A stretch of DNA of 15,250 nucleotides from UHGV virus genome UHGV-1735045; one strand, 5' to 3'. Under the pieces are notes generated by a model. The model saw only the letters and a program-made list of their open reading frames with translations. It ran no database searches and was not told the DNA's origin. Every line of letters starts with the position of its first letter. The stretch's first letter is position 1. The stretch is from a virus. A program made the translations under genes and the position numbers. Shown here one piece after another: positions 1-15,250 of this stretch.

Positions 1-918
1 AGATAATGCAGCCGCTGTTTTTGAACCTGCCGCAGCTGAGGCGCTCTGTCCCGCTGCTGTTTCAGAAGACCTGGCGTTCGTCTCGGACGTTTTTGCCGCC
101 TTCGCGGAATTTCCTGCCGCCGTTGCCGAGGAAGCTGCACTACTGGCACTTGATGATGCATTCGTTTCTGAAGATTTCGCTGCCTCTTTTGAGGCCGCCG
201 CACCCCGTGCCGAGGTGGCAGCTTCTGACGCCTTCGTGGTCGCTGTGGATGCAGAAGTGGCTGCCGATTTTTGTGATGCTGCGGCATTCGTTTCTGACGT
301 TTTCGCGGCACTGGCGCTGGTAGCTGCCGCGCTTTTTGATGACTCTGCAGCAGCAGCACTTTTTGCTGCTTCACGGGCCTTTGTCGATGCCGTTCCTGCG
401 CTGGAAGACGCTGACTGAGCCGACGACGCGGCCTGTCCGGCTGACGTGCTGGCGGCACGTGCTGAGGCTGCAGCATCGGTTGCATGAGTTGCCGCCTCGC
501 TGGCTGATGCACTGGCATCGCTGGCTGATTTTTTCGCGGCTGCCGTATTCTGTGCAACCGCGGAGGCGTTACGTGACACCTCTTCCACCATCTGCTCAAA
601 GCGGCGCAGTGCCTCCGGCATGACATCATCTTCCGTCATGGCACCGAGAAAATCATTCAGCGTACCTGGTCTGGAACCTTCATAGACGGTAATGGTCCCG
701 GCATGTGAAGGCGGAAAACCTTCAACCAGCAGGGTGACGCTGTACTGACCATGCTCAACATCCATGCTGTAACGTCCGGCTTCATCCGGATTTTCAGAAG
801 CCACCGTGTTCACCAGTACCGTGGTGCTGTTACGCTTTGCCTTCAGTTGAATAGTGCAGTTCTGTATTGGTTTTCCCGCACCATCTTTCAGCACACCTGA
901 GATTTTTACTGCTGCCAT
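1..918 (-). CDS. stf: Side tail fibre protein Stf, N-terminal 306 codons (partial; gene continues beyond window start)
   Basis: Minus-strand frame is open from ATG at 918-916 to position 1. Translation begins MAAVKISGVLKDGAGKPIQNCTIQLKAKRNSTTV..., which I recognise as the lambda Stf (orf-401) N-terminus, followed by an Ala/Ser-rich low-complexity region. It is absent from the ORF track because it runs off the window edge. Confidence 0.85.
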   Translation of the reverse strand, partial: MAAVKISGVLKDGAGKPIQNCTIQLKAKRNSTTVLVNTVASENPDEAGRYSMDVEHGQYSVTLLVEGFPPSHAGTITVYEGSRPGTLNDFLGAMTEDDVMPEALRRFEQMVEEVSRNASAVAQNTAAAKKSASDASASASEAATHATDAAASARAASTSAGQAASSAQSASSSAGTASTKAREAAKSAAAAESSKSAAATSASAAKTSETNAAASQKSAATSASTATTKASEAATSARGAAASKEAAKSSETNASSSASSAASSATAAGNSAKAAKTSETNARSSETAAGQSASAAAGSKTAAALS

Positions 919-929
919 ATCCACTCCAC

Positions 930-956
930 AAAAAAGCCCGCCTGAACCGGCGGGCT
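930..956 (-). terminator. Rho-independent terminator-like hairpin between lom and stf
   Basis: On the minus strand: AGCCCGCC-GGTTCA-GGCGGGCT (8-bp GC-rich stem, 6-nt loop) followed by a U5 run (plus-strand A-tract 930-934). It lies 27 nt downstream of the lom stop. Confidence 0.6.
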
Positions 957-982
957 GTCATAACACTGTGTTACCTGGCTAA

Positions 983-1582
983 TCAGAATTTATAACCGAC
1001 ACCCACGATGAAACCGTCAGTGCGCCAGTCACCACTGCCGGAACCTTCATAAGCAAGGTCAATGGCCACGGATTCGGTCGGGTTAAACTGCACGCCAGCC
1101 CCCCACGCCAGAGACGTGTTGCTGTGGCGACCGTCATCACTTCCGGTCAGCACATCGTGCGTTTTCCCCTTGTTGTCAGTTACGCGGAGATAATCCCCGG
1201 AGAAAGTCGACACACGGCTGTAAGCCACACCCACCATCGCATACGCGCTGAACCATTCATTCACGCGTACAGACGGCCCCGCCATCACGCTGAACCAGCG
1301 GTTACGCACGGAATCTTCATGCCAGCGGGTATCGCTGTAGTGCGTTTTTTGCTCATCCTCAGCATTGGCATAACTGAAGGACGTAATCAGCCCCAGCGCG
1401 TCCGTAAACTCATAACGGTATTTCACGTTAATCCCGTTCAGATTATCGCTGCCGGGAGCGTTCGTACGGGCATGAAGATACCCCGCGCTCAGTGTGGACT
1501 GATGTTCAGACGCCCATGCAGGCGCACCGGATACGGACAGACAGATGGCTGCGGACAAAATGGCTGCACAAACTTTACGCAT
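983..1582 (-). CDS. lom: Lom-family outer membrane beta-barrel protein (Ail/Lom/OmpX/PagC family), 199 aa
   Basis: ORF 983..1582. N-terminal signal peptide MRKVCAAILSAAICLSVSGAPAWA. The C-terminal strand ...DLAYEGSGSGDWRTDGFIVGVGYKF matches the lambda Lom C-terminus as I recall it, ending in the terminal aromatic residue typical of OMP barrels. SD-like GAGAGG lies upstream of the ATG. Position immediately downstream of J is as in lambda. Confidence 0.9.
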   Translation of the reverse strand: MRKVCAAILSAAICLSVSGAPAWASEHQSTLSAGYLHARTNAPGSDNLNGINVKYRYEFTDALGLITSFSYANAEDEQKTHYSDTRWHEDSVRNRWFSVMAGPSVRVNEWFSAYAMVGVAYSRVSTFSGDYLRVTDNKGKTHDVLTGSDDGRHSNTSLAWGAGVQFNPTESVAIDLAYEGSGSGDWRTDGFIVGVGYKF

Positions 1583-1603
1583 AATTACCTCTCGCTTTTC
1601 TGC

Positions 1604-1630
1604 AATAAAAAAGGCGCCATTTCTGGCGCC
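1604..1630 (-). terminator. Rho-independent terminator-like hairpin between J and lom
   Basis: On the minus strand: GGCGCC-AGAAAT-GGCGCC (6-bp all-GC stem) followed by TTTTTTATT (plus-strand A6 at 1607-1612). It starts 20 nt after the J stop and ends 22 nt before the lom ATG. Confidence 0.6.
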
Positions 1631-1649
1631 CGTATTGGGGTTATAAAAT

Positions 1650-4600
1650 TCAGCTAATCGTGATGCCTGCAGTGGCTTTCTTCATCACAACAACCAGCAA
1701 ATCGCTGATACTTGCTGTGGGATACCAGCCATTTACCCACCATGCTGATACAGAAAACTCCAGCGTCATGTGGCCGCGACCAGCAGGCATATCAATAACA
1801 CCACTGTAAATCAGCGTATTATCCAGCGCGGTACGGTTATAAATTTCAGCACCGTTTTTCCGTACTATCAGGCGGCATGACGAATAAGTATCGCTGTTCT
1901 CCCGCTCATGTCTGGCACCGCTGAAAGCCACCGCCGGAATAACAATCTGCCGGTTAAACGGCTGATCGTCATAAACCCTGACGGTAATGGTTCCTGATGG
2001 CCAACGCTCCGGTGCACGGGAGTCACGGGGGAAAGCCTTACCCACTGTTTTAACGAGATCGCCTTCAATCTGGTTTGCAGACAGTTTCCCTCTGATGACA
2101 CAGTTCTCGTTAATGGTGACATTATTGAGCGTGCCGGTATTCGCCGTGATGGCTCCACTGATATCCGCATTGCGGGCTGTCAGCCTGCCATCCGGCGTCA
2201 GGGAAAACGTCGGAGGATTGCCGGATGACGTGATGCTCACCGCAAACAGTCGCTTCAGGAACACGTCGTTCATGAACAGCTGATTCCCCTGCGCCACAAA
2301 CAGCGGCGTGGTGTTGCCGTTCTCCGGGGTAATCATCGCAATGCGATCGGCCTGCAGCAGAATGTTACTCAGGGTCTGACCATCAACATCCTCAATCCCC
2401 GCGCCAATCCCGGCCACATAGGGAATACCGTTTTTTGTTTTCTGCACCTTCAGCATATACATGGCATTCAGCTCATTGCGCGTGTCTGACTGAACCCGCT
2501 GGATTTGCTGTATGGTCACGGCCTGGTCACCCAGCTTTTTATCCGTGGTCGAGGTAATTTCACTCCCTTTTTTATCCACGTACTGGCGGACCTGTGCTAT
2601 CTGTCGGGCGTTTTCTGACTGCCCCTGGCTGACAGTCTGTGAGATTTCACTGCTCACCCGGTCCACTTTCTGGCTCACCTGCGCGATGGCCAGTGTCTGG
2701 TCCTCATTCTTTTTCGCAACCAGCTGCGTGAGGCTGTTTTCCGCCTTCCCGATTTTCCGGGTCACTTCTGCGATATCCGTGTCCATCCGCTGACGGATAT
2801 CTTCTTCCAGTTGCGTGACCTCCGTACGCAGCGCTGAAGCATCAATGCGCTCTTTCAGTGCCTGCCCCAGAAGCGTCTCATCTATCAGCCCCCGGAAAAT
2901 TTCCAGATACCCTTCACCATCATTGCTGGGCTGCCCGCTGGCTTCCACAAAAGCAGATTTTCCCACCAGGTTGACGCTTCGCACGTAAAACCAGAAATCC
3001 GTCCCCGGCTTAATCCGGCTCCCCTGGACAGTCCACTGACTGCCGGTCCCCAGATAACGGGCAGATTTTTCCACCTGTGCTGTGTTCGTGATGCGTTTTT
3101 CCGAAAACCAGAACTCAAACTGCACCGTCGGGTCATACACCGCAAGACGCGGGACCGCCGTTATCTGAAAATACCCCGGCGTCAGCTCAATGGTGGCGGG
3201 TTTTGCAGGTGCGTTAATCCGGAACGATACCGACGCCGGATCGCCCTGCTGTCCCCGGGCATTTACCGCCCGGACCGTCAGCGTGTAACGCCCCAGCGCC
3301 AGCTGCCTGAAGCGGTAAGTGGTTTCCGCCGTCCGGGCCGTGCTGACCAGCCGCTCACTGCCGTCATCCGCTGTTACGGTCAGACGGAGCAGGAAGCTCA
3401 CGCCCTTCACCACCTTCGGCGTGTCCCAGCGCGCCAGCACCTGATATTCCCCGCTGTCTGCGGTGACTTCGGCGGTCAGGTGCTGCACCGCTGGCGGCGT
3501 GACACCATTCACCGTGCCACTCTGTTCGCCGTCAAAGTGCGCCCCGTTATCCACGATGGCCTCTTTTTCCGGTACATGCTGCACGGCGGTGATGGCATAC
3601 GTGCCGTCGTCATTCTCACGGATACTCACGCAGCGGAACAGGCGCTGGCGCAGCGTCGGCAGCTTAAGCCCCCACACGCTGTATTCAGCAACACCGTCAG
3701 GAACACGGCTCACTTTTACCTTCACGCCGTCGGTGACGGACTGAACCTCCACGCTGACCGGACTCCCCTGCCCGTCAACCAGGCTTATCAGCGTGGTGCC
3801 GGAGGATGGCAGCGTGATTTCACGGTCGAGCGTCAGCGTCCGGGTCTGGCTGTTCACCGCCAGCACGCGCCCGCCGGTGCTGATACCCGCATAGTCATCA
3901 TCGCAGATTTCAATGACATCCCCCGGTACATGGCGAAGCCCTTCCGCACCCACGCTGAAGTCCACGGTCTGCGTTTCCAGCAGTTCCGTTTTAATCAGCC
4001 ACAGCCCGGCGCGGTGCGCCTGCCCCCGGCTGGTACAGCCAAAGGCATCCATCTTCGTGACGTTACGACCGTAACGGGCAATGGCCTGCGTATCTTCAAC
4101 AAGCTCTGTCGCCGTCTCCCAGCCGTTGTTCGGGTCAATCCAGTTCACCTCAACGGCATTATGGCGGTCCTTCAGGGCGCTGAAGCTGTAGCGGAACGGC
4201 GCGCCATCATCCGGCATCACCACATTACTGCGGTTATAGGTCCACACCTTATCTGATGGTCGGTCCTGCACGAACGTCAGCGTCTGCCCGTTCCATACCG
4301 GCATACAGCGCATCGCCGAGCAGAAATCACTGAGAACATCCCACGCCTTACGCTGTGTGGTCAGCCAGGCATTACAGGTGATGCGCGGCTCCGTGCCGCC
4401 AAAGCCGTCCGGCACTGACTGGTCGCAGTACTGGCCGATGACATACAGCGCCCATTTATCCACATCCGCCGCACCAAGACGTTTCCCCATGCCGTAGCGC
4501 GGATGGGTCAGCATATCCCACAGACACCAGGCCATGTTGTTGCTGTATGCTGGCTTAAACGTTCCGTCCCAGATACCGCTGTATTGCCGCGTCTGCGGGT

Positions 4601-5348
4601 TATAGTTCGACGGCACCTGCAGAATGCGCCCGCGAAGATGATAATTACGGCTCACCTGCTGGCTGCCGAACTGCTCCGAGTCCACCTGTACGCCGACCAG
4701 TGCCGTGTTCGGGTAGCACTGTTTCACATCGATGATTTCTGTGTATGACGACCAGAGCGTTTTGTTCTGCAGCTGGTCTGTGGTGCTGTCCGGCGTCATC
4801 CTGCGCATCCGGATATTAAACGGGCGCGGCGGCAGGTTATCCACCACCACCGAGGCCAGATACTGCGACGTGGTTTTGCCCTTAATGGTGATGTCTTTTT
4901 CCGTCACCCAGCCACCGTTACGCTGTATCTGAACCAGCAGACGGACTTCCGACGGATTCCTGTCACCCTTTGAGGTGGTTTCCACCAGTGCCTGCACACC
5001 GAAGGTAAAGCGCAGACGGTCGATGTTTGCCGACGTGATGGTCCGGGTAATCGGCGTGTCGTACTTCACTTCCGTACCCAGCACCGTCTCGGAGCCGGAG
5101 GATTCAAACCCCTCCGGCGGTGTCTGCTCCTGCTCACCGGCACGGAACACCACCGTGACACCGGAGATGTTGGTATTCCCCTCAGTGTCCAGCACCGGCG
5201 TATTGTTCAGCAGCACGCTTTTTAATCCATCCACCGGACCTTCAACCGGCCCTTCGCTGATGGCATCGATCACACTCAGCAGCTGCGTGGACTTCAGGTT
5301 GTCCTTCGCTTCGCGCGGGGTATGCCCCTTACTGCTTCCTTTACCCAT
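1650..5348 (-). CDS. J: Central tail fibre / tail tip host-specificity protein J, 1232 aa, with extended coiled-coil segment and divergent C-terminal receptor-binding region
   Basis: ORF 1650..5348. The first ~800 residues ([34 protein letters not shown]...) are near-identical to lambda J as I recall it. The conserved motifs YVAGIG and [18 protein letters not shown] are present. The C-terminal ~170 aa differ from lambda. SD GAGGA lies upstream of the ATG. Confidence 0.95.
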
Positions 5349-5370
5349 TCCTCACGCTCCATAAATGACA

Positions 5371-5390
5371 AAACCGCCCGCAGGCGGTTT
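5371..5390 (-). other. Intergenic RNA hairpin between I and J (weak terminator-like)
   Basis: On the minus strand: AAACCGCC-TGCG-GGCGGTTT, then TGTCATTTATGG, leading into the J SD and ATG. Sits in the 60-nt I-J gap. Confidence 0.35.
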
Positions 5391-5408
5391 CACATAAAAC
5401 ATTTTGCA

Positions 5409-6080
5409 TCAGCGACCAATCACCACAACCTGACCACCGTCCCCTTCGTCTGCCGTGCTGATCTCCTGAGAAACCACGCGTGACCCCACGCGCATTTCCC
5501 CGTACAGAACGGGCAGAACATTGCCCTGGGCAACCATGTTATCCAGTGAAGAAAAATAGGTGTTCTGTTTGCCGTTATCCGTTGTCTGTGTGCGGGGGAT
5601 TTTGGGTTTAGGGGCCAGCATCTGCGCCACACCACCGAGCACCATACTGGCACCAAGAGAAAACAGGATGCCGGTCATACCACCGGCCCCAATGGCTGCC
5701 CCCCATGCTGCAAGGGTGGCTCCGGCAGTAAAGAATGATCCGGCAATGGCGGCAGCTCCCAGGACAATCTGGAATACGCCACCTGACTTGGCCCCGGCGA
5801 CTCTGGGAACAATATGAATCACAGCGCCATCAGGCAGAGTCTCATGTAACTGCGCCGTTAATCCGGACGTGCTGACATCCCGCCCGGCAATCCGTACCTG
5901 ATACCAGCCGTCGCTCAGCTTCTGACGAAACGCCGGGAGCTGTGTGGCCAGCGCCCGGATGGCTTCGGCCCCCGTTTTCACACGAAGGTCGATGCGGCGG
6001 CCAAATCGTTGTAAATCCCCGTAAAGGCAGATGCGTGCCATGCCCGGTGACGCCAGAGGGAGTGTGTGCGTCGCTGCCAT
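5409..6080 (-). CDS. I: Tail tip assembly protein I, 223 aa
   Basis: ORF 5409..6080. Sequence MAATHTLPLASPGMARICLYGDLQRFGRR... matches lambda gpI. The 672-nt length and 103-nt overlap with the K 3' end are exactly as in lambda. Confidence 0.93.
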   Translation of the reverse strand: MAATHTLPLASPGMARICLYGDLQRFGRRIDLRVKTGAEAIRALATQLPAFRQKLSDGWYQVRIAGRDVSTSGLTAQLHETLPDGAVIHIVPRVAGAKSGGVFQIVLGAAAIAGSFFTAGATLAAWGAAIGAGGMTGILFSLGASMVLGGVAQMLAPKPKIPRTQTTDNGKQNTYFSSLDNMVAQGNVLPVLYGEMRVGSRVVSQEISTADEGDGGQVVVIGR

Positions 6081-6721
6081 TTGTCGGTATACCTCTCTCG
6101 TTTGCTCAGTTGTTCAGGAATATGGTGCAGCAGCTCGCCATCACCACAGTAAATGGCGGCATGATTCGGCACCGATGAACCAAAACAGCACAGCAGCACA
6201 TCGCCCGGTTGTGCTGATGACAACGGCACCTGATACAGCCCTGTGGCCTCCAGATTATCCAGATAGAGATTCTGACCGTGACGCCACCAGTCATCCTCGC
6301 GATGAAAATCCGGCATCTCAATCCCCGCCAGATGATAAGCATCCCGGAACAGCGTGTAACAGTCCGTCACCCCGTGCTCAAAGCGCCGCCCGGTGAGATG
6401 CGGCACACAGAGGAACTTATGAATCGTCCCCCGGCAGACCAGCCACCACGGCAAATCACTCTGCACCTGCAGCCGCCGGTCGGCTTCACTCAGCCAGGGC
6501 AGACCACCGGGATGGCTGTGGACCAGCGCGACAATCTCACCCTGCATCTCTGCCTGCAGCCAGTCCTCCGGCGACATACGGAAATACGCCTCCGGCTCAC
6601 CGGAGATATTCACGCAGGGAAAATATCTTTCCCCCTCCGGCGTTCTCACCACGAAGCCGCACGACTCCGCTGGCGCACATCGCCGGGCGTGCGCCAGAAT
6701 CGCTGATTCTGTCTCTGTCAT
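5978..6721 (-). CDS. K: Tail tip assembly protein K (JAB/MPN + NlpC/P60 two-domain protein); long form 247 aa, with the lambda-annotated 199-aa form starting at 6577
   Basis: ORF 5978..6721. Contains the JAMM-like motif HSHPGGLPWLSEAD (H-x-H-x7-S-x2-D) and a downstream Cys/His-containing region (GVTDCYTLF ... NHAAIY ... HH) consistent with NlpC/P60. The frame is open upstream to an ATG at 6721, 5 nt after the L stop. The internal ATG at 6577 (MSPEDW...) corresponds to the conventional lambda K start. Confidence 0.85.
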   Translation of the reverse strand: MTETESAILAHARRCAPAESCGFVVRTPEGERYFPCVNISGEPEAYFRMSPEDWLQAEMQGEIVALVHSHPGGLPWLSEADRRLQVQSDLPWWLVCRGTIHKFLCVPHLTGRRFEHGVTDCYTLFRDAYHLAGIEMPDFHREDDWWRHGQNLYLDNLEATGLYQVPLSSAQPGDVLLCCFGSSVPNHAAIYCGDGELLHHIPEQLSKRERYTDKWQRRTHSLWRHRAWHASAFTGIYNDLAAASTFV

Positions 6722-6726
6722 GGGAT

Positions 6727-7425
6727 TTACTGCGAAAGTTTGTTAATGGAAAGGAAGCCGCCAAAGTTGCCGACGTTATTGCGAAACTTACAGCCACTCA
6801 GGCATTTGCTGCATTTATCCTTCGTGATATCGGACGTCGGCTGGTCATATTCATCAGCGACAGCCGGACCGTGATAACCGCACTCATCACCGCGATAGGT
6901 CCAGGTGCAGGTGTTGGCCAGCATGATGCGCCCCGGAAAAACGGCACCATCCGTTTCCGTCGGCGTGGACAGTACAAAAGAGGCACTGACCGCGCTCAGT
7001 TCGCTGCACTGCTCGATGCGCCAGCGGCTGATCACCTCCTGCTCCGGATCGGCGTCGCTGTTTCCGTTGACGAAGTTCACCGCATCCAGAAAACGGGCAT
7101 AAACCTTACGCCTGACCACCGTTCCGCCGACCAGACTCTGCAGGTCTTCCGCCATCCCGGTGACCATACCGTACAGGTTAGAAACCGTCAGCGTGGGGCG
7201 CGTACTGGTGCCTTTGCCATTCAGTTCAAAACCACTCCCCTGAATGGGATACGGCTGATACTGTCGCCCCTGCCAGGTGACCGGCTCACCTTTTTCGTTC
7301 TGCTCATTACAGAAAAAATAACGTTCTCCACCGACCTCTGTCAGGTCGATTTCCCAGAGCACCACGCTGGCCGACTGCTCCGCACGGGTGCATTCATTCA
7401 GTGTTTCCTGCCGGATATCCTGCAT
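6727..7425 (-). CDS. L: Tail tip assembly protein L, 232 aa, with C-terminal cysteine cluster
   Basis: ORF 6727..7425. Sequence MQDIRQETLNECTRAEQSASVVLWEIDL... matches lambda gpL. Length 699 nt as in lambda. Cys residues at 173, 182, 205, 208 and 212. The L ATG overlaps the M stop (TGATG). Confidence 0.93.
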   Translation of the reverse strand: MQDIRQETLNECTRAEQSASVVLWEIDLTEVGGERYFFCNEQNEKGEPVTWQGRQYQPYPIQGSGFELNGKGTSTRPTLTVSNLYGMVTGMAEDLQSLVGGTVVRRKVYARFLDAVNFVNGNSDADPEQEVISRWRIEQCSELSAVSASFVLSTPTETDGAVFPGRIMLANTCTWTYRGDECGYHGPAVADEYDQPTSDITKDKCSKCLSGCKFRNNVGNFGGFLSINKLSQ

Positions 7426-7754
7426 CAGTTCACCACCTGTTCAAACTCTGCGCTGAACTCAACACGCAGCATACTGACCCGCGACGACCATTTTGCGCAG
7501 GTCACCTTTATCTGCCGCCACTCATAAGGCGGCGTCCACAGAAAGGCTTTCCAGCCCCCGTGCTCTTCCAGAAACGACTCCAGCGCCGCGGCCTCCCAAC
7601 GGGGAACAGAAAGCGTCACGCTGTACGTTTTCAGGTTGGCATTCAGCCCGGCAGGCGCTCGCTGGGAATAGCCATCACCAAAGCGCACCTTTCTTACAGA
7701 AGGGGCCGAAGCCACATCCATACCGGGTTTCACTTTCCAGCGGAAGGTTTTCAT
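7425..7754 (-). CDS. M: Tail tip assembly protein M, 109 aa
   Basis: ORF 7425..7754. Sequence MKTFRWKVKPGMDVASAPSVRKVRFGDGYSQRAPAGLNANL... matches lambda gpM. Length 330 nt as in lambda. The start overlaps the H stop. Confidence 0.93.
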   Translation of the reverse strand: MKTFRWKVKPGMDVASAPSVRKVRFGDGYSQRAPAGLNANLKTYSVTLSVPRWEAAALESFLEEHGGWKAFLWTPPYEWRQIKVTCAKWSSRVSMLRVEFSAEFEQVVN

Positions 7755-10312
7755 CGTCCACCTCCGGAGAACAGGCCACCATCACGCATCTGTGTCTGAA
7801 TTTCATCACGGGCACCCTTGCGGGCCATGTCATACACTGCCTTCATCATCTGTGGACCTGGCAGACCATTCGTACCGTCGTTCTGAATCACCACGTGATT
7901 GTTCTGATTAAAATTAATGCCTTCAGCCCGCCGCATCTGCGCCGGACTTCCGGCACCGCCCACATAACCACCTTCCGCATAGCCCCGCATCAGGCGGTAC
8001 AGGTTGCCGACACCAATCCGGCTGGTTGCCTCCTTCGTGAAGACAAATTCACCACGGTGAACAATCCCCGCTGGCTCATATTTGCCGCCGGTTCCCGTAA
8101 ATCCCCCGGTCGCAAAATGGAATTTCGCCGCAGCGGCCTGAATGGCTGTACCGCCTGACGCGGATGCTCCACCACTGGCAGCACCGCCAATGGCGCTGCC
8201 GATACTCCCGACAATCCCCACCATTGCCTGCTTAAGCAGAATTTCTGTCATCATGGACAGCACGGAACGGGTGAAGCTGCGCCAGTTCTGCTCACTGCCG
8301 GTCAGCATCGCCGCCATATTCTGTGCAATACCATCAAAGGTCTGCGTGGCTGCACTTTTAACCTGCGACATACTGTCCGTGGCGCTCTCTTCCCACTCAC
8401 TCCAGCCGGACTTCAGGCCTGCCATCCAGCTCCCGCGAAGCTGGTCTTCAGCCGCCCAGGTCTTTTTCTGCTCTGACATGACGTTATTCAGCGCCAGCGG
8501 ATTATCGCCATACTGTTCCTTCAGGCGCTGTTCCGTGGCTTCCCGTTCTGCCTGCCGGTCAGTCAGCCCCCGGCTTTTCGCATCAATGGCGGCCCGTTTT
8601 GCCCGTTGCTGCTGTGCGAATTTATCCGCCTGCTGCGCCAGCGCGTTCAGGTGCTCCTGATACGTGACCTTATCGCCAAGTGCAGCCAGCTGGCGTTTGT
8701 ACTCCAGCGTCTCATCTTTATGCGCCAGCAGGGATTTCTCCTGTGCGGACAGCTGGCGACGTTGCGCCGCCTCCTCCAGTACCGCGAACTGACTTTCCGC
8801 CTTCCACAAATCCCGGCGCTGCTGGCTGATTTTCTCATTCGCTCCGGCATGCTTCTCCAGTGTCCGGAGTTCTGCCTGAAGCGTCAGCAGGGCAGCATGA
8901 GCACTGTCTTCCTGACGATCGCCCGCAGACACCTTCACGCCGGACTGTTTCGGCTTTTTCAGCGTCGCTTCATAATCCTTTTTCGCCGCCGCCATCAGCG
9001 TGTTGTAATCCGCCTGCAGGATTTTCCCGTCTTTCAGTGCCTTGTTCAGTTCTTCCTGACGGGCGGTATATTTCTCCAGCGGCGTCTGCAGCCGTTCGTA
9101 AGCCTTCTGCGCCTCTTCGGTATATTTCAGCCGTGACGCTTCGGTATCGCTCTGCTGCTGCGCATTTTTGTCCTGTTGACTCTGCTGTTCAGCCTTCTTT
9201 CGGGCGGCTTCAAGCGCAAGACGGGCCTTTTCACGATCATCCCAGTAACGCGCCCGCGCTTCATCGTTAACAAAATAATCATCCTTGCGCAGATTCCAGA
9301 TGTCGTCCGCTTTCTTAAACGCAGCCTCTGCCTTAATCAGCATCTCCTGAGCGGTATCAGGACGACCAATATCCAGCACCGCATCCCACATGGATTTGAA
9401 TGCCCGTGCTGTCCTGTCTGCCCAGGTTTCCAGCGTGCCCATGTTCTCTTTCAGGCGTCGGGTCTGGTCATCAAACCCTTTCGTTGCGGCCTCGTTCGCC
9501 GCCTGCAATGCCCCGGCTTCATCGCCGGAACGCTGCAACTGAGCAACATACGCAATCTGCTCCGCCGTCACGTTATGGAACTGGCGCGCCATCGCTGTCA
9601 GCCCCGACGTCGGGTCAGTGGTCAGCTTCCCGAAGGCTTCAGCGACCTTGTCCACCTCCACGCCGGATGCAGAGGAGAAACGCGCCACACTCTGGCTGAT
9701 GGACGCAATCTGAGCCTCACCGCTTACCCCCGCCTTAACCAGCGCACTGAGTGACTCGCTGGTCTGGTTAAACGTCAGCCCTGCCGCCTGCCCGGCTCTG
9801 GACAGGACCAGCATACGATCTGCCGTCAGACCCGACTGATTACCGGAAAGGACCAGCGTTTTGTTGAAATCGGACAGGGTTGAGTTACCCTGATACCAGG
9901 CATACGCCAGCGCACCGGTCGCCACCGCCAGCGAGGTGGCCCCGACCATCGGCAGGGTGATCGCACCGGCAAGCCCCCGGAACATGGGGATCATCCCGCC
10001 GAAGGAGTCCTTCACCTGACCGCCCTGTTGCAGCAGGATCAGCCAGGGATTCTGACCACCGGCAAGCTGCGTGGCGATATCCGTAAACTGTGCGGGCAGG
10101 GTTCGCATGGCGGCTTTATACTGCCCGACGGAAATCCCCGCTTTCTGTGCAGCCAGCGCCTGTCGGCTCAGCGACTGTTCAACGACTGCCGCTGTTTTTT
10201 TCGCATCACTTTCCGTACCGGAAAAATGACGCCTGACTCTGGCCATCTGCTCGTCAAATCTGGCCGCATCCAGACTTAAATCAACGACCAGATCGCCTAC
10301 CGGTTCAGCCAT
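7751..10312 (-). CDS. H: Tail tape measure protein H, 853 aa
   Basis: ORF 7751..10312. Sequence MAEPVGDLVVDLSLDAARFDEQMARVRRHF... matches lambda gpH, with the same 2562-nt length. Long central coiled-coil-rich region and a C-terminal Gly/Ala-rich hydrophobic segment (MVGIVGSIGSAIGGAASGGASASGG). The start overlaps the T stop by 8 nt. Confidence 0.95.
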   Translation of the reverse strand: MAEPVGDLVVDLSLDAARFDEQMARVRRHFSGTESDAKKTAAVVEQSLSRQALAAQKAGISVGQYKAAMRTLPAQFTDIATQLAGGQNPWLILLQQGGQVKDSFGGMIPMFRGLAGAITLPMVGATSLAVATGALAYAWYQGNSTLSDFNKTLVLSGNQSGLTADRMLVLSRAGQAAGLTFNQTSESLSALVKAGVSGEAQIASISQSVARFSSASGVEVDKVAEAFGKLTTDPTSGLTAMARQFHNVTAEQIAYVAQLQRSGDEAGALQAANEAATKGFDDQTRRLKENMGTLETWADRTARAFKSMWDAVLDIGRPDTAQEMLIKAEAAFKKADDIWNLRKDDYFVNDEARARYWDDREKARLALEAARKKAEQQSQQDKNAQQQSDTEASRLKYTEEAQKAYERLQTPLEKYTARQEELNKALKDGKILQADYNTLMAAAKKDYEATLKKPKQSGVKVSAGDRQEDSAHAALLTLQAELRTLEKHAGANEKISQQRRDLWKAESQFAVLEEAAQRRQLSAQEKSLLAHKDETLEYKRQLAALGDKVTYQEHLNALAQQADKFAQQQRAKRAAIDAKSRGLTDRQAEREATEQRLKEQYGDNPLALNNVMSEQKKTWAAEDQLRGSWMAGLKSGWSEWEESATDSMSQVKSAATQTFDGIAQNMAAMLTGSEQNWRSFTRSVLSMMTEILLKQAMVGIVGSIGSAIGGAASGGASASGGTAIQAAAAKFHFATGGFTGTGGKYEPAGIVHRGEFVFTKEATSRIGVGNLYRLMRGYAEGGYVGGAGSPAQMRRAEGINFNQNNHVVIQNDGTNGLPGPQMMKAVYDMARKGARDEIQTQMRDGGLFSGGGR

Positions 10313-10739
10313 ACCGGACTCCTCCTGCGATCCCTTCTGATACTGTCATCAGCATTACGTCATCCTCCGTCATGCCCGCCATATCCGGGGAAGTAGGGAT
10401 AACTTCATTTCCGTCCGGGTCAAAACGAACGCCTCCGGCAAGCCCTGCCGCTTTCTGCATCAGCACATCATCTTCAGGCTCTTCGTCATCCTCACGCCGG
10501 TTCAGCAAACTGAAATCCAGCGGATGCATATCCGGATCGCTGAAAAACAGGCTGAGCACGGTGTACGTCAGCCCGGAAAAGTGCATATCCAGCAGAACAT
10601 CATGAAAATAATGGGTACTGTAAAAGCGGTGCCAGTCGGCATACTCCGTGGATGACATCCCGGCAAGCATGGCACGCCAGTCGGGTCGCCCCATCTCACG
10701 CGCCAGTTTCAGGGCAAAACTCAACTCACCGTCGAACGC
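10305..10739 (-). CDS. T: T portion of the tail assembly chaperone G-T fusion, expressed by -1 programmed frameshift from G (lambda-style annotation)
   Basis: The -1 frame relative to G is open from the slippery site to the stop at 10307-10305 and encodes ...FDGELSFALKLAREMGRPDWRAMLAGMSSTEYADWHRFYSTHYFHDV..., matching lambda gpT. There is no ATG start; the only in-frame start-like codon is a TTG overlapping the G stop. The 435-nt length equals the lambda T annotation. Confidence 0.85.
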   Translation of the reverse strand, partial: AFDGELSFALKLAREMGRPDWRAMLAGMSSTEYADWHRFYSTHYFHDVLLDMHFSGLTYTVLSLFFSDPDMHPLDFSLLNRREDDEEPEDDVLMQKAAGLAGGVRFDPDGNEVIPTSPDMAGMTEDDVMLMTVSEGIAGGVRYG

Positions 10740-11143
10740 TTTCCCGCAGAAACAGGCTCTGCAGGCCCGGCGTCCTCTGCCTGTTCAGGAGCATCATTCA
10801 CCACAAACTCATACATACCGGACAGCCGGTACACCACGTTTTCAGCATGAGAAATTGCCTCCGTGGGCCAGGTGGTAAGCACTTCCTGCTCAATCTGTTT
10901 AACGGCTTCATTCATGGAAGGCAGCTTTGTCTTCTGCGGATGGTTATGCCACAGGGACATCGCCACCACAAAAGCGCCGGTTCTGATGGCGTCTTCCACA
11001 GTAAACTTCCGGTTGCTGTCTGACTCCGCCTGTTCTGCCTGTCGTTTCATCAGGGCGAGATGCTCAATACGCTGCAGGGCTGACAGTTCAGAAAGCGTGA
11101 CGGTCACACCGTTATGTTCAAATGATTCGGTTTTCAGGAACAT
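10721..11143 (-). CDS. G: Tail assembly chaperone G, 140 aa
   Basis: ORF 10721..11143. Sequence MFLKTESFEHNGVTVTLSELSALQRIEHLALMKRQAEQ... matches lambda gpG. Length 423 nt as in lambda. SD GGAGAG lies upstream. Confidence 0.93.
   Translation of the reverse strand: MFLKTESFEHNGVTVTLSELSALQRIEHLALMKRQAEQAESDSNRKFTVEDAIRTGAFVVAMSLWHNHPQKTKLPSMNEAVKQIEQEVLTTWPTEAISHAENVVYRLSGMYEFVVNDAPEQAEDAGPAEPVSAGKRSTVS
10739..10745 (-). other. Programmed -1 ribosomal frameshift slippery heptamer G GGA AAG (G to G-T recoding site)
   Basis: Plus-strand CTTTCCC at 10739-10745 is GGGAAAG on the minus strand. In the G frame the codons are GGA (10744-10742) and AAG (10741-10739), 5 codons before the G stop. The -1 frame continues open into T. 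Confidence 0.8.
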
Positions 11144-11158
11144 CGCTGACTCTCCGGA

Positions 11159-11899
11159 TTAACTGCCGGTGACGGTGATTTCTGCAACCGCAGCAAGTTC
11201 ACCATTACCGGATACAACCGGAATGTTGACCTTGCCTGCAGCAACACCTTTCACGGTGATGGTCATACCACTGACCGACACGGTGGCTTTTGTTTTATCC
11301 GCAGACACCGCACGGAAGCTCTTGTCGGTTGCGCCCTCCGGCTGGAATGCCACGGTCAGCGTGATGCTCCGCCCTTTCACCACCGAAGTGCTGGCAGGCG
11401 TCACGGTCATGCCGGTTGCCGCTGTTACCGTGCTGCGATCTTCTGCCATCGACGGACGTCCCACGTTGGTGACTTTCACCGTGCGGGTGATCACTTCCTT
11501 CGCCGTCACCGCCTTACCGATACTGCTGACCCAGCCGCGGAACACATCGACCGTGCCGTTCGGGAAGCGGATTTTATAGGCACGGGTATCCCCTTTATTA
11601 AACCACGCCAGCAGCGCCTGCTGCCCCTGCTCTCCGGGCATCCACGCCAGCGTGAAGATGGTATCTCCGGCAGATTTCTGCCCCTGCCCGGTCGCAGTCC
11701 AGTCCGCATTTTCATCATCGAGATAGCTGTCGTCATAGGACTCAGCGGTCAGTTCGCCGGGCGTCAGGTCTTTAACCTTTGCCAGACGCGACCAGTCATT
11801 GTCTGAAAGCGGGTTTGCATAAGGGTCGCCGCTCCCGTTATAAACCCACAGTGTGGTCCCGGCCCCTTTCACCGGTGCCAGAGGATTTGGTGTTGGCAT
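11159..11899 (-). CDS. V: Major tail tube protein V, 246 aa, with C-terminal Ig-like (Big_2-type) domain
   Basis: The ORF-track frame is 11159..11929, but the lambda-equivalent start is the ATG at 11899 ([20 protein letters not shown]...), 8 nt after the U stop as in lambda. That gives 741 nt, the lambda V length. The C-terminal ~80 aa ([25 protein letters not shown]...) look like the Ig-like decoration domain. Confidence 0.9.
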
Positions 11900-11906
11900 A
11901 TCGTCC

Positions 11907-12302
11907 TCACATTTCATAGGTAATGACATAAGTCAGATCGGCTGAACTCCACAGGCCCGCATCATCGTCGCGCCGGTAGTCATAGCCGCTGGCCACCATA
12001 CTGGTGATCAAATCTGACAGTGCCGGGATATCACTCATCACCGGATAAATCCGGGACTCCATCCACGCATCCAGCTCTGAATCCGGCACCTGAGCAGGCA
12101 GGAAAACTTCAATATGCAGCTCTGCCTGCCAGGTATCGCTGTCCAGCTCTTCGCCCGTGTATTCAGCGCCAGTGAGATAAACGGCAATTGCCGGAAAATC
12201 CGCCTCATCAAAAACAGCGGGGCGACCATCAAAAAGCGTCGCCCCGGTGTCATGCTTCTCCAGTGCATCCAGTACGGCTGCACGGAGTTCAGTATGTTTC
12301 AT
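11907..12302 (-). CDS. U: Tail terminator protein U, 131 aa
   Basis: ORF 11907..12302. Sequence [43 protein letters not shown]... matches lambda gpU. Length 396 nt as in lambda. ATGA overlap with the Z stop. Confidence 0.93.
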
Positions 12303-12874
12303 CGCTTTATCACAATCCTCAGTTGTTGTTTCAGCGCATAGCTCAGTTCTTTTGGCAGACGTTCTCGCCGGATACGGTTAACGTTCTCATCAAAAGCCTG
12401 TTTCAGTGGGACCGCCATCGGAATTTTCACCACCTGAATGGGAAGACGATTACGCTTTTTCCTTCCCTTATCGTCAGTGCCCTTCGCATACCGTGCTTCT
12501 GGCAGACGTTGCATAACATGCCAGCGTCCATTATTTAATCGCTGGATGAATGCCCGCTGATAACGATGCTGACCGGCTTTGAGTATGCTGTTCGGGCGAT
12601 GACCAAGCATCCTGATCCCCAGCTTAATAGCAGGGAGATCACCTCGGTTAACGATAATTTTTGCATTCGGATTTCTGACCGTAGCTCGTTTCAGTCTGGA
12701 TCGCTCTTTAACCAGTTTTCTCGGCACCCGGGTTTCACGGGCGACCTGAGACGAAGACTGATTAATCGCCGTTGCGGCCACGCGGTTAATGGCCATTGCT
12801 GACGCACTAGGCACCGCCGTTTTGCTGATACGGCTGAGGTTTTCAACGGCCTGCTCAAGACCTTTTATGGCCAT
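12299..12874 (-). CDS. Z: Tail completion protein Z, 191 aa
   Basis: ORF 12299..12874. Sequence MAIKGLEQAVENLSRISKTAVPSASAMAINRVA... matches lambda gpZ. It is one codon shorter than the lambda length I recall. Confidence 0.92.
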   Translation of the reverse strand: MAIKGLEQAVENLSRISKTAVPSASAMAINRVAATAINQSSSQVARETRVPRKLVKERSRLKRATVRNPNAKIIVNRGDLPAIKLGIRMLGHRPNSILKAGQHRYQRAFIQRLNNGRWHVMQRLPEARYAKGTDDKGRKKRNRLPIQVVKIPMAVPLKQAFDENVNRIRRERLPKELSYALKQQLRIVIKR

Positions 12875-12885
12875 ACACCCCCCTT

Positions 12886-13239
12886 TCAGCGACGACGGTT
12901 AACGGCAGGCGGTACGCCCCGTCCAAGCCAGAGATGACAGCTTCCGCCATCATCCGGCGTAACCCGATCTACCCAGAAGTTTTCCTCACCGATGGTCAGC
13001 GTGTCTCCGCGCCGCAGCTGCCGCACATCATCAGTCCGGACAAACAGGGACGGGCTGGAGCCTTCAACGCGCACGCCCTGTCCGGCATAGCTGATATTTT
13101 CAGGGTCATCAAAAACACCACGTATCACAGCACCGGACTGCTCACCGGATGTCATGGTGGCTGACGTTCCCATGTACCCGCGTATCGTTTCATCGGCGCG
13201 GGCAATAGCAGCATCGAACAGGTTATCGAAATCAGCCAC
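12886..13239 (-). CDS. FII: Head-tail joining protein FII, 117 aa
   Basis: ORF 12886..13239. Sequence MADFDNLFDAAIARADETIRGYMGTSATMTSGEQ... matches lambda gpFII. Length 354 nt as in lambda. 11-nt gap from the FI stop, as in lambda. Confidence 0.93.
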   Translation of the reverse strand: MADFDNLFDAAIARADETIRGYMGTSATMTSGEQSGAVIRGVFDDPENISYAGQGVRVEGSSPSLFVRTDDVRQLRRGDTLTIGEENFWVDRVTPDDGGSCHLWLGRGVPPAVNRRR

Positions 13240-13250
13240 AGCGCCTCCCG

Positions 13251-13637
13251 TTATTGCATTCTGGCCAGGCCACGCTCTGTCATTTCAGCTGCCACACCGG
13301 CAGAGACACGAAACGCCGTTCCCGGCAGCACAAATGCCACAGGTTCATCCCGCGTGGCGTGAAGTGCATCAGTATGCAGCGTCACCAGTGCCACAACCGT
13401 GACCAGATCAGCCGTATCAGTCACGGTATCCGGCTGCGCTGATACCACCTCATTTTCATGTCCGGTCAGCGCATTTTCCGGGCTGATAGGGGTATCCTGA
13501 TCGGCAGTGTCATCAAGCTCCTCTTCCAGCTCTGCCACACGGAGCGCCAGTTCTTCTTTCGTTCCCGTCAAACTGACATCGCGGTTCAGTTGCTCACCCA
13601 GCTCCTGAAGACGGGCAATCAGTTCATCTTTCGTCAT
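13251..13637 (-). CDS. FI: DNA packaging accessory protein FI, 128 aa
   Basis: The ORF track gives 13251..13676, but the start consistent with lambda is the ATG at 13637 (MTKDELIARLQELGEQLNRDVSLTGTKEELALRVAELEEEL...), preceded by a strong SD GGAGGAG. The 41-nt gap from the E stop equals the lambda spacing. The central acidic linker appears a few residues shorter than in lambda. Confidence 0.88.
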   Translation of the reverse strand: MTKDELIARLQELGEQLNRDVSLTGTKEELALRVAELEEELDDTADQDTPISPENALTGHENEVVSAQPDTVTDTADLVTVVALVTLHTDALHATRDEPVAFVLPGTAFRVSAGVAAEMTERGLARMQ

Positions 13638-13658
13638 GGACTCCTCCACAGAGAAACA

Positions 13659-13676
13659 ATGGCCCCGAAGGGCCAT
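13659..13676 (-). other. Stable RNA hairpin with UUCG tetraloop immediately after the E stop codon
   Basis: On the minus strand: ATGGCCC-TTCG-GGGCCAT (7-bp stem, UUCG loop). It starts 2 nt after the E TAA and is followed by UUGUUUCUCUGU and then the FI SD. Confidence 0.5.
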
Positions 13677-13678
13677 GA

Positions 13679-14704
13679 TTACGCCAGTTGTACAGACACG
13701 AACTCATCAGGGTCAGCCAGCAGCATCAGCGGTGCTGACTGAATCATGGTGAACTCACGCGCCGGATCGCCGGATGTCTTCCAGTTTTTCGGATAACGGG
13801 GAGACGCATTAATACCCTCACTCAATGCATCCGCATCCTGAATGCAGCCATAGGTGCGCAGACCGCGTGCATGAGTGTTACCCAGCACCATCGTGTTGTC
13901 CGGCAGGAAGTTCTTTTTGACGCCGTTTTCCACGTACTGTCCGGAATACACGACGATGGCCACATCGCCATACATTCCCTTATAAGACACCGCTTTGCCC
14001 AGGTCTTTCACCGCTGTCTCCAGCTCGGAATGAGAGCCGCGACGGGTATCCAGCTTATCCTTGACGGCCTTGAAGGAACGGAACAGCGCCCAGCCTTTCG
14101 GATCAAACACGATGATATTCACCACACCGCTGGCGTTCAGCGCGTAGGCTTCGATATCGTCGGTCGGGTCATACGTGGACTTGTCACGCTTGCTCCACGC
14201 CGTGCCGCCGGACTGCGTGATGTTGTTGGCCGCACTGCGGCCCATATCCACCTCAACCGGATCGAAGGCTTCACCGGTCATGGTGTATTTGCCCTTGAGC
14301 ACGGCAGAAACTGCCTGCATCTCTTCCACCTGGGCAATGGCCAGCTCTTCGTCACGCATGTTCTGCATGATGATGCGACGGCGACGGTAAGCCGGGTCCG
14401 CCAGATTCTGCGGATCTTCATCCGGCAGGCGACGCAGGGTCATCTGCGGATTCACTTCATGCTTGGGTTTGACATATCCCGGCGTAAATTCAGAGGTGGA
14501 GCCGCCACGGGAACGGATAACCTCACCGGAAACAATCGGCGAAACGTACAGCGCCATGTTTACCAGTCCAGGAATTTGTGAGAGATAGACTTTCTCTGTA
14601 GTGAAGGGATAGCTCTCACGGAAAAAGAGACGCAGAAACAGCGGATCAAACTTAAATTTCTGCTCATTTGCCGCCAGCAGCTGGGCGGTTGTGTACATCG
14701 ACAT
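13679..14704 (-). CDS. E: Major capsid protein E, 341 aa
   Basis: The ORF track gives 13679..14731, but the lambda-equivalent start is the ATG at 14704 (MSMYTTAQLLAANEQKFKFDPLFLRLFFRESYPFTTEKVYL...). That gives 1026 nt, the lambda E length, and a 55-nt D-E gap as in lambda. Confidence 0.95.
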   Translation of the reverse strand: MSMYTTAQLLAANEQKFKFDPLFLRLFFRESYPFTTEKVYLSQIPGLVNMALYVSPIVSGEVIRSRGGSTSEFTPGYVKPKHEVNPQMTLRRLPDEDPQNLADPAYRRRRIIMQNMRDEELAIAQVEEMQAVSAVLKGKYTMTGEAFDPVEVDMGRSAANNITQSGGTAWSKRDKSTYDPTDDIEAYALNASGVVNIIVFDPKGWALFRSFKAVKDKLDTRRGSHSELETAVKDLGKAVSYKGMYGDVAIVVYSGQYVENGVKKNFLPDNTMVLGNTHARGLRTYGCIQDADALSEGINASPRYPKNWKTSGDPAREFTMIQSAPLMLLADPDEFVSVQLA

Positions 14705-14717
14705 AAAAAAATCCCGT

Positions 14718-14738
14718 AAAAAAAGCCGCACAGGCGGC
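14718..14738 (-). terminator. Terminator-like hairpin plus U7 in the D-E intergenic region
   Basis: On the minus strand: GCCGC-CTGT-GCGGC followed by TTTTTTT (plus-strand A7 at 14718-14724), then ACGGGA and a second T7 run directly abutting the E ATG. Confidence 0.45.
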
Positions 14739-14759
14739 CTTTAGTGATGAAGGGTAAGC

Positions 14760-15092
14760 TTAAACGATGCTGATTGCCGTTCCGGCAAACGCGGTCCGTT
14801 TTTTCGTCTCGTCGCTGGCAGCCTCCGGCCAGAGCACATCCTCATAACGGAACGTGCCGGACTTGTAGAACGTCAGCGTGGTGCTGGTCTGGTCAGCATC
14901 AACCGCCAGAATGCCAACGGCAGTACCGTCGGTGGTGCCATCCCACGCAACCAGCTTACGGGTGGAGGTGTCCAGCATCAGCGGGGTCATTGCAGGCGCT
15001 TTCGCACTCAATCCGCCGGGCGCGGTTGCGGTATGAGCCGGGTCACTGTTGCCCTGCGGCTGGTAATGGGTAAAGGTTTCTTTGCTCGTCAT
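14760..15092 (-). CDS. D: Head decoration protein D, 110 aa
   Basis: The ORF track gives 14760..15098 (MFMTSKE...). The lambda-equivalent start is the second ATG at 15092 ([41 protein letters not shown]...), giving 333 nt as in lambda. A 9-nt gap from the upstream C/Nu3 stop also matches lambda. Confidence 0.95.
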
Positions 15093-15101
15093 AAACATCC
15101 C

Positions 15102-15250
15102 TTACACTGGTGTGTTCAGCAAATCGTTAACGGCATCAGATGCCGGGTTACCTGCAGCCAGCGGTGCCGGTGCCCCCTGCATCAGACGATCCAGCGCAGT
15201 GTCACTGCGCGCCTGTGCACTCTGTGGTGCAACTGCCAGAATGCGGCGGG
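15102..15250 (-). CDS. C: C-terminal fragment of the head protease/scaffold frame (C and nested Nu3), partial; gene enters from beyond the window end
   Basis: Minus-strand frame is open from the window end to TAA at 15104-15102 and encodes ...RRILAVAPQSAQARSDTALDRLMQGAPAPLAAGNPASDAVNDLLNTPV. Position 9 nt upstream of D matches the lambda C/Nu3-D arrangement. Identified mainly by synteny; I cannot verify this C-terminal sequence from memory. Confidence 0.7.
   Translation of the reverse strand, partial: RRILAVAPQSAQARSDTALDRLMQGAPAPLAAGNPASDAVNDLLNTPV

Follow-up and report, generated by a model that had tools for sequence, protein, structure and literature searches.

A mosaic lambda-family J gene with a long, predicted helical shaft and a putative OmpC-type tip

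Lambda gpJ (UniProt P03749; PDB 8IYK, 8XCG and 8XCJ) is the tip attachment protein, or central tail fibre, of phage lambda, and it binds the receptor LamB. The protein consists of a hub, two FNIII domains, a helical shaft, a beta-prism and an Ig-like tip. When it binds LamB, the shaft flips and residues 841-861 become beta strands; in the fibre, the distance between the FNIII domains and the tip is 29.7 nm (PMC11101478). Natural prophage tips have also been fused to lambda J at residue 964 and screened in a host that lacked lamB and carried OmpC alleles on plasmids. In that screen, the tip called 1A2 delivered DNA via OmpC when the EDL933 allele was supplied, but not with the K-12 allele. The A8 tip used both alleles, and A8 and 1A2 jointly covered 21 of the 23 OmpC variants (Brödel et al., Nature 2024, PMC11338833). 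1A2 was later used for targeting O157 (bioRxiv 10.1101/2025.02.28.640725). Here we describe a J gene of this family in UHGV virus genome UHGV-1735045, within a stretch of 15,250 nucleotides that we call the window.

The window covers the late (head-tail) genes of a lambda-like phage or prophage, which are encoded on the minus strand. In the order of reading, its open reading frames (ORFs) start with the head genes D and E, continue with the tail genes and end with J, lom and the beginning of stf. J occupies 1650..5348 on the minus strand (1232 codons plus stop, according to the ORF list and its translation). It follows H, M, L, K and I, lies between I and lom and precedes stf, and annotations in related phages match this placement. 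All six J-family domains (FNIII-A_GpJ, Phage-tail_3, Ig_J, Ig_J_second, Phage_Tail_Tip and Ig_GpJ_C) score above their Pfam cut-offs and occur in the lambda order. By its domain set and its position in the cluster, the product is a lambda-family tip attachment protein J. It shares the gene position and the overall plan of lambda gpJ.

With a probability of roughly 0.75, this gene is an intact, functional lambda-family allele that recombined near codon 710 and that carries a long shaft of 29-residue units and an OmpC-type tip. The same 1232-residue J is present in two isolated phages, PhiR49_2 (PV340570) and PhiR40_1 (PV340560), with 99-100% nucleotide identity over window positions 1586-3500 and a long shaft that is 100% identical at the protein level. 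These two are the only carriers of the shaft among 50,697 phage records; all other J proteins in these records match it at <40% over a shorter span. Judging from the database records of the two isolates, which name a host, J works in an infectious virion. We found no published characterisation of the PhiR phages in the literature searched. The allele is common in E. coli: 638 of 5426 complete genomes cover at least 80% of window positions 1600-3000, and in 416 records the best match to this region has at least 99% identity.

These occurrences bear on the idea that the long J is not a working protein, its gene being either a prophage gene in decay or an artefact of assembly. Some database relatives do look damaged, namely P0082, with two perfect 29-residue duplications, and P0091, a fusion of tape measure and J. 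However, the frame in the window is open through all 1232 codons, the same J occurs in two isolated phages, and matches of at least 99% occur in hundreds of complete genomes. The phage isolates effectively refute the idea, and we give it almost no credence.

The recombination joint and the exchanged module

Over positions 2895-15250 the window is ~95% identical to lambda by blastn, with one short break at 12442-12618. Positions 1110-2895 have just two short matches to lambda, and the part from 1110 to 1650 has one match of 58 nucleotides (1386-1443). Many lambda-like phages cover 86-91% of the window at 94-95% identity. Within J, nucleotide identity to lambda in a sliding comparison is ≥95% as far as codon ~670, 83-87% over codons 670-709, 80-87% to codon ~750 and then 50-70% up to an insertion that is described below.

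A prophage of E. coli S1-ISR-02-A (NZ_CP145636) exhibits the opposite pattern. It is ~100% identical to the window from position 1 to ~3220, and 61-79% identical over the rest of J. In base-by-base maps, mismatches to this prophage number four in 2900-3220 (all at 3102-3123) and are dense from 3221 onwards. Mismatches to lambda, by contrast, are dense up to 3096, moderate over 3105-3329 and sparse from 3366. Together with the Pfam borders, the maps place the switch point at 3216..3221 (minus strand). This corresponds to about codon 710, at the junction of the two FNIII/Ig-like domains (Ig_J at 610-714 and Ig_J_second at 716-818). The joint region as a whole (2700-3900) is present in full length, at ~98% identity, in many E. 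coli genomes. Divergence without recombination was ruled out, because identity flips abruptly, and in opposite directions, against the two references.

On the upstream side of the joint, the hub domains and FNIII-1 (residues 1-709; 3222..5348, minus strand) have 98.0% amino acid identity to lambda J. On the downstream side, identity falls to 68.8% over residues 710-818, 33% over 819-839 and 29% over 941-975, and is 69% over 976-1062. The Pfam match to FNIII-2 (Ig_J_second, residues 716-818; 2895..3203, minus strand) thus lies inside the swapped module, and its DNA is ~100% identical to both NZ_CP145636 and PhiR49_2.

The first-pass annotation, which was made from the letters of the window without database searches, had regarded the first ~800 residues of J as essentially those of lambda and had proposed a recombinational swap of the distal fibre. 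The swap is borne out by the comparison with NZ_CP145636. The lambda-like part does extend over residues 1-709, but not over residues 710-818. A nucleotide alignment to lambda reveals the anticipated drop in identity, which begins at about codon 670, and the boundary itself lies near codon 710, ~90 codons upstream of the proposed position.

The recombination joint near codon 710 is clean. Besides FNIII-2, shaft, prism and tip, the exchanged piece includes lom and the start of stf. Window positions 1110-1650 are 97-100% identical to NZ_CP145636, and the part of stf in the window (1-918) has ~100% nucleotide identity to that prophage and 84% to lambda stf. The prophage encodes a 1230-residue J with a different body and a 1024-residue tape measure, so the distal module occurs on unrelated tail backgrounds. 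Its full stf gene has 3030 nucleotides (1009 amino acids), and the next gene is one for tail fibre assembly. The other parent can also be narrowed down. Over 3221-3340, the window has 12 differences from lambda and is identical to PhiR49_2, so the lambda-like parent was not lambda itself.

Given these data, we propose that J was assembled via homologous recombination near codon 710, at the junction of FNIII-1 and FNIII-2. This event would have joined a lambda-type body (residues 1-709) to a distal module of FNIII-2, shaft, beta-prism and receptor-binding domain, with lom and the stf start. The module circulates in lambdoid prophages of E. coli whose J bodies and tails are quite different.

The helical shaft

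Lambda J has 1132 amino acids (3399 nucleotides), and the 1232 codons of window J were set against this number in the first-pass annotation, whose statements on lambda J are correct. When the C-terminal 532 residues are aligned with MAFFT, which we used instead of pairwise BLASTP since the latter misplaced the insertion, the whole length difference falls into a single block of 101 residues without a lambda counterpart (J 840-940; 2529..2831, minus strand). The block lies between FNIII-2 and the beta-prism. Pfam matches lead to the same result. Ig_J_second is at 716-818 in both proteins, whereas Phage_Tail_Tip starts at 946 in window J versus 845 in lambda and Ig_GpJ_C at 1102 versus 1001, such that all domains downstream of the insertion are shifted by +101. 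No Pfam model covers residues 819-945 of window J. The YVAGIG block is present and conserved relative to lambda, as is the second block quoted in the first-pass annotation. The extra length precedes YVAGIG, as had been claimed.

We predicted the structure of the J 800-990 segment with AlphaFold2, as a monomer and using a 17-sequence alignment. The model has a short helix at 811-824, then an unbroken helix of 139 residues (J 826-964, corresponding to segment residues 27-165; 2457..2873, minus strand), and then strands. Predicted local distance difference test (pLDDT) scores are mostly >90. The aligned stretch of the lambda shaft (~826-863) has ~38 residues.

The shaft sequence resembles itself with a period of 29 residues. 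The z-score of the autocorrelation is 6.4 for an offset of 29 residues, 4.2 for 58 and 3.7 for 11, and the shaft can be written as five in-register 29-mers from residue 826, in which I, V, L or A recur at positions 5, 8, 12 and 19. The hydrophobic moment has its maximum at 3.62 residues per turn (29/8), with a power of 102.6 versus 7.9 at 3.5 residues per turn; the power at 3.62 was reached by 3 of 1000 shuffled sequences. This stretch had been described as rich in heptads in the first-pass annotation. However, a peak at 3.62 with almost no power at 3.5 means that the shaft is not a canonical heptad coiled coil. The repeat is consistent with 7+11+11, a type expected of a nearly straight bundle. 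We therefore do not retain the heptad description. Judging by its sequence and predicted fold, the shaft would be a single long helix of five 29-residue units, each with eight core positions, in a near-straight bundle. By analogy with lambda, this bundle is expected to have three helices.

Counted in these units, the lambda shaft has ~1.5 and the shaft of window J has five, and the insertion contributes ~3.5. The insertion falls between the conserved start of the shaft, beside FNIII-2, and the last unit, which in window J (942-962) aligns with lambda residues 841-861. The extra 101 residues would thus be flanked on one side by the part clamping FNIII-2 and on the other by the unit whose lambda counterpart refolds on receptor binding. 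Tandem Repeats Finder reported no DNA repeats in the shaft, and any two units are identical in at most 11 of 29 amino acids and 48% of nucleotides. The low identity of the units and the lack of a DNA tandem repeat imply that the extension is old and does not reflect a recent duplication.

At 0.15 nm per helical residue, 101 extra residues would lengthen the fibre by ~15 nm, i.e., from roughly 30 nm to 45 nm. A longer tip fibre had been suggested in the first-pass annotation, and the predicted 139-residue continuous helix, versus ~38 residues in lambda, supports the suggestion at the level of a structure prediction. Alternatively, the extra residues could fold back as a compact helical bundle or as a decoration beside the shaft, and the fibre would not be longer. 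The structure model is of a monomer, has a predicted template modelling (pTM) score of 0.38 and is silent on trimerisation and on the straightness of the helix, and the helix contains five glycines. All of this leaves some room for folding back. By contrast, AlphaFold2 predicts no turn in the helix, which is unbroken at pLDDT >90, and there are 0 prolines in its 139 residues. Moreover, the hydrophobic stripe holds one phase (period 3.62) along the full length, and all five repeats share one register, which a continuous bundle would be expected to show. We thus consider folding back quite improbable and favor a continuous, elongated shaft.

To compare shafts among relatives, we measured the spacing from the end of FNIII-2 to the YVAGIG motif. 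It was measurable in 65 sequences, including window J, and many relatives are fragmentary. A word-indexed protein search, which yielded only fragments of at most 335 amino acids, served only to spot other shaft alleles. Among relatives, the spacing takes discrete values: 74 in lambda and in the A8-type J of P0091, 102 in the type found in O157 Stx phages, and 175 in the window allele and two close relatives. Larger spacings occur in distant J-like proteins, although the longest, 330-590, rest on weak anchor matches. Shafts with spacing 175 occur in combination with no fewer than three unrelated distal ends, those of the window, P0081 and P0014. Therefore, shaft and tip are exchanged separately.

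Several of these relatives have peculiarities of their own. P0081, whose long shaft belongs to class 175 or longer, has no Ig_GpJ_C domain. P0014 and P0082 also have long shafts (class 175 or longer) and share the C-terminus '...DFARVTGDIRSDNF...GRL'. The two perfect 29-residue tandem duplications in P0082 (538 amino acids) are located in the shaft (EVTKKITASENSITELVAKKSGEQSLAIA twice) and in the prism, and could be recent gains of units or an assembly artefact. In P0091 (1246 amino acids), the N-terminus resembles a tape measure and is fused, in frame, to J sequence from residue ~310 on, and the tip is of the A8 type. P0091 is probably a deletion remnant of a prophage.

We found no description of variation in J shaft length in the literature searched. 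As far as this literature shows, the stepwise variation in length and the independent exchange of the shaft are undescribed, and we regard them as a modest lead. Tentatively, the shaft could be a modular spacer of adjustable length: a near-straight three-helix bundle of 29-residue units, existing among E. coli J proteins in length classes 74, 102 and 175, and longer in distant relatives, shuffled independently of the body and the tip, and setting the reach of the tip through the O-antigen or capsule of wild hosts. We consider this broader proposal possible, but the odds are against it. If it is true, the 'shaft flip' model of triggering in lambda could naturally be put to the test with a shaft of 21 nm that is still able to relay the signal from the receptor.

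The tip and its likely receptor

The shaft leads into the beta-prism, or 'central straight fibre' (Pfam Phage_Tail_Tip, residues 946-1073; 2130..2513, minus strand), a region that matches PDB 8IYK, 8XCJ and 9WCA. The protein ends with the Ig-like receptor-binding domain (Pfam Ig_GpJ_C, E = 3.4e-37, residues 1102-1232; 1653..2045, minus strand), which is of the 1A2/O157 type. The last ~220 residues are 92% identical to the J protein of Stx2a_WGPS2, 54% to that of phage 434 and 53% to that of lambda. Over 177-178 aligned C-terminal residues, the tip is ~90% identical to the gpJ 1A2 tip and 65% identical to the A8 tip (PDB 9WCA).

Based on this similarity to 1A2, whose DNA delivery depends on OmpC, the most likely receptor of the tip is not LamB but the trimeric porin OmpC, with selectivity among OmpC alleles. 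The first-pass annotation had predicted a different host receptor from that of lambda, and the identities of ~90% to 1A2 and 92% to the O157 J, versus 53% to lambda, lend indirect support to the prediction. Identity is high over precisely the segment that was swapped in 1A2, i.e., from lambda residue 964 onwards (~90% to our reconstruction of 1A2 and 92% to Stx2a_WGPS2 J). The two isolated phages with the window J list ECOR13 as their host, not K-12; this record is weak evidence, consistent with a tip for which K-12 OmpC is not a receptor.

Could the tip nonetheless bind LamB or another maltoporin-like receptor, its substitutions being due to drift or to escape from host resistance? It belongs to the same Pfam family as the lambda tip, as the E-value of its Ig_GpJ_C match indicates, and it aligns end to end with the lambda tip with only one 1-residue gap. 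The first-pass annotation had called the last ~170 residues homologous to the LamB-binding domain yet heavily substituted, which is an apt description. However, the close identity to the lambda receptor-binding domain that would be expected of a LamB-binding tip is lacking: 77 of the last 170 residues (45%) and 53 of the 131 residues of Ig_GpJ_C (40%) are identical. Lambda J thus differs from window J both in length, at 1132 residues, and in its C-terminal domain, which is far from an identity of >90%. Moreover, the tip is ~90% identical to one that was selected on a lamB deletion and is OmpC-dependent. The shared family does not help to choose between receptors, since the OmpC-binding tips of 434 and A8 match it too. 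LamB or a similar receptor is therefore very unlikely.

Several points weigh against the assignment to OmpC, or limit how far it can be taken. We rebuilt the 1A2 protein by hand from supplementary DNA that had been read by optical character recognition and had many indel errors, combining reading frames, so the value of 90% is approximate. The rebuilt 1A2 is nearly identical to the O157 J in the database, whose 92% identity backs the figure. The window tip differs from 1A2 and WGPS2 mainly in three of the segments with the greatest variability between J types (one that stands against AKHEREHTDI, GRGH against GHGH, and WWVNGW against WLVNNW), which are presumed to contact the receptor as loops. 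Window J could thus prefer another OmpC allele than 1A2, or even use another receptor. In addition, 1A2 was assayed on a shaft of lambda length and not on the long one (PMC11338833). Finally, we found no experiment on the window J allele in the literature searched; a preprint on receptor prediction covers J proteins of Drexlerviridae, not lambda-type J.

The differences in the variable segments raise the question of whether the tip has switched to a third receptor, such as OmpF or another porin. A switch of porin is possible with few mutations in the tip, as in the OmpF host-range mutants of lambda J, and the differences from 1A2 and WGPS2 do fall in three of the most variable segments. By contrast, the identity to OmpC-type tips is 90-92%, and 1A2 and A8, which are only ~65% identical to each other in our alignment, both use OmpC, so use of this porin tolerates far more divergence than is seen here. 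A third receptor is therefore unlikely, although less so than LamB, and OmpC is still our preferred candidate. After binding, the signal would presumably travel up the prism and shaft, free the FNIII domains and open the tube, by analogy with lambda.

Neighbouring features and comparison with known J proteins

We now note the remaining features of the window, all on the minus strand unless stated otherwise. Downstream of J, the lom gene (983..1582) encodes an Ail/Lom outer-membrane protein of 199 amino acids (Pfam Ail_Lom, E = 1.9e-126). A consensus scan detected a terminator-like GC-rich hairpin with a T run directly 3′ of the J stop codon (1612..1631) and another directly 3′ of lom (935-956). 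Phage 434 has annotated terminators at the same places. The 5′ part of stf (side tail fibre), as identified by translation, occupies 1..918 and is truncated by the edge of the window; the N-terminal region that it encodes includes a long low-complexity stretch rich in Ala, Ser and Thr. Two antisense ORFs on the plus strand (1987-2283 and 2512-2793) are both fully within J.

The break in lambda similarity at 12442-12618 lies inside gene Z. It consists of ~175 nucleotides without a blastn match to lambda, flanked by sequence that is ~95% identical, and forms a further mosaic patch of small size. At 5586-5886, in the region where genes I and K overlap, lies another point of exchange among close relatives. 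The window is lambda-like here and is 48-63% identical to PhiR49_2, which elsewhere matches at 94-100%. Thus, PhiR49_2 and PhiR40_1 share the window J but differ elsewhere in the tail cluster, e.g., in gene I and in part of lom.

In the ORF list, V (11159-11929), FI (13251-13676) and E (13679-14731) have 256, 141 and 350 amino acids, respectively. The lambda proteins have 246, 132 and 341 amino acids, i.e., 9-10 codons fewer. The longer ORFs in the window probably arise because the ORF lister takes the earliest start codon available.

Mosaic tail-fibre genes are the expected route by which lambdoid phages change host range, and our main finding adds little more than one well-mapped example. 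It ties a very common natural prophage allele of J to a class of tips whose binding to OmpC has been experimentally characterised, and thereby provides hundreds of E. coli prophages, as well as PhiR49_2 and PhiR40_1, with a receptor assignment that can be tested. That the helical shaft of J varies in discrete steps of length, and is exchanged apart from the tip, is relevant to the engineering of lambda-based delivery particles, in which only the tip has been swapped so far. It is also relevant to testing how the receptor signal moves along the fibre.

The known J proteins most similar to that of the window each share a part of its properties. Lambda gpJ has the same Pfam domains in the same order, but the shaft of window J is 101 residues longer, its FNIII-2 is 69% identical and its tip is 40-45% identical; lambda gpJ binds LamB, which is unlikely for window J. 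The gpJ 1A2 tip is the functionally characterised tip discussed above, ~90% identical past lambda position 964, and is an engineered fusion on a shaft of lambda length (PMC11338833). Stx2a_WGPS2 J (NC_049941), from an Stx2a-converting phage of O157:H7, and its relatives have 88% nucleotide identity over window positions 581-2540, which include the start of stf, lom, the tip and the prism. However, this J has 1157 amino acids, its shaft is 73-75 residues shorter and its body is ~77% identical at the nucleotide level. The OmpC-binding types 'A8 gpJ' (PDB 9WCA/9WCB) and phage 434 J belong to the same family and have the same domain order as window J, and A8 is the best PDB match to the C-terminal 532 residues (E = 2.7e-158). 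Unlike window J, both have a shaft of lambda length (spacing class 74). The window allele is already public and annotated as J, work on close relatives has established the receptor class of its tip, and its mosaicism is of the textbook kind for tail fibres. Compared with these systems, window J is a real but ordinary, uncharacterised member of a known family, and its length-variable shaft is the only mildly interesting part.

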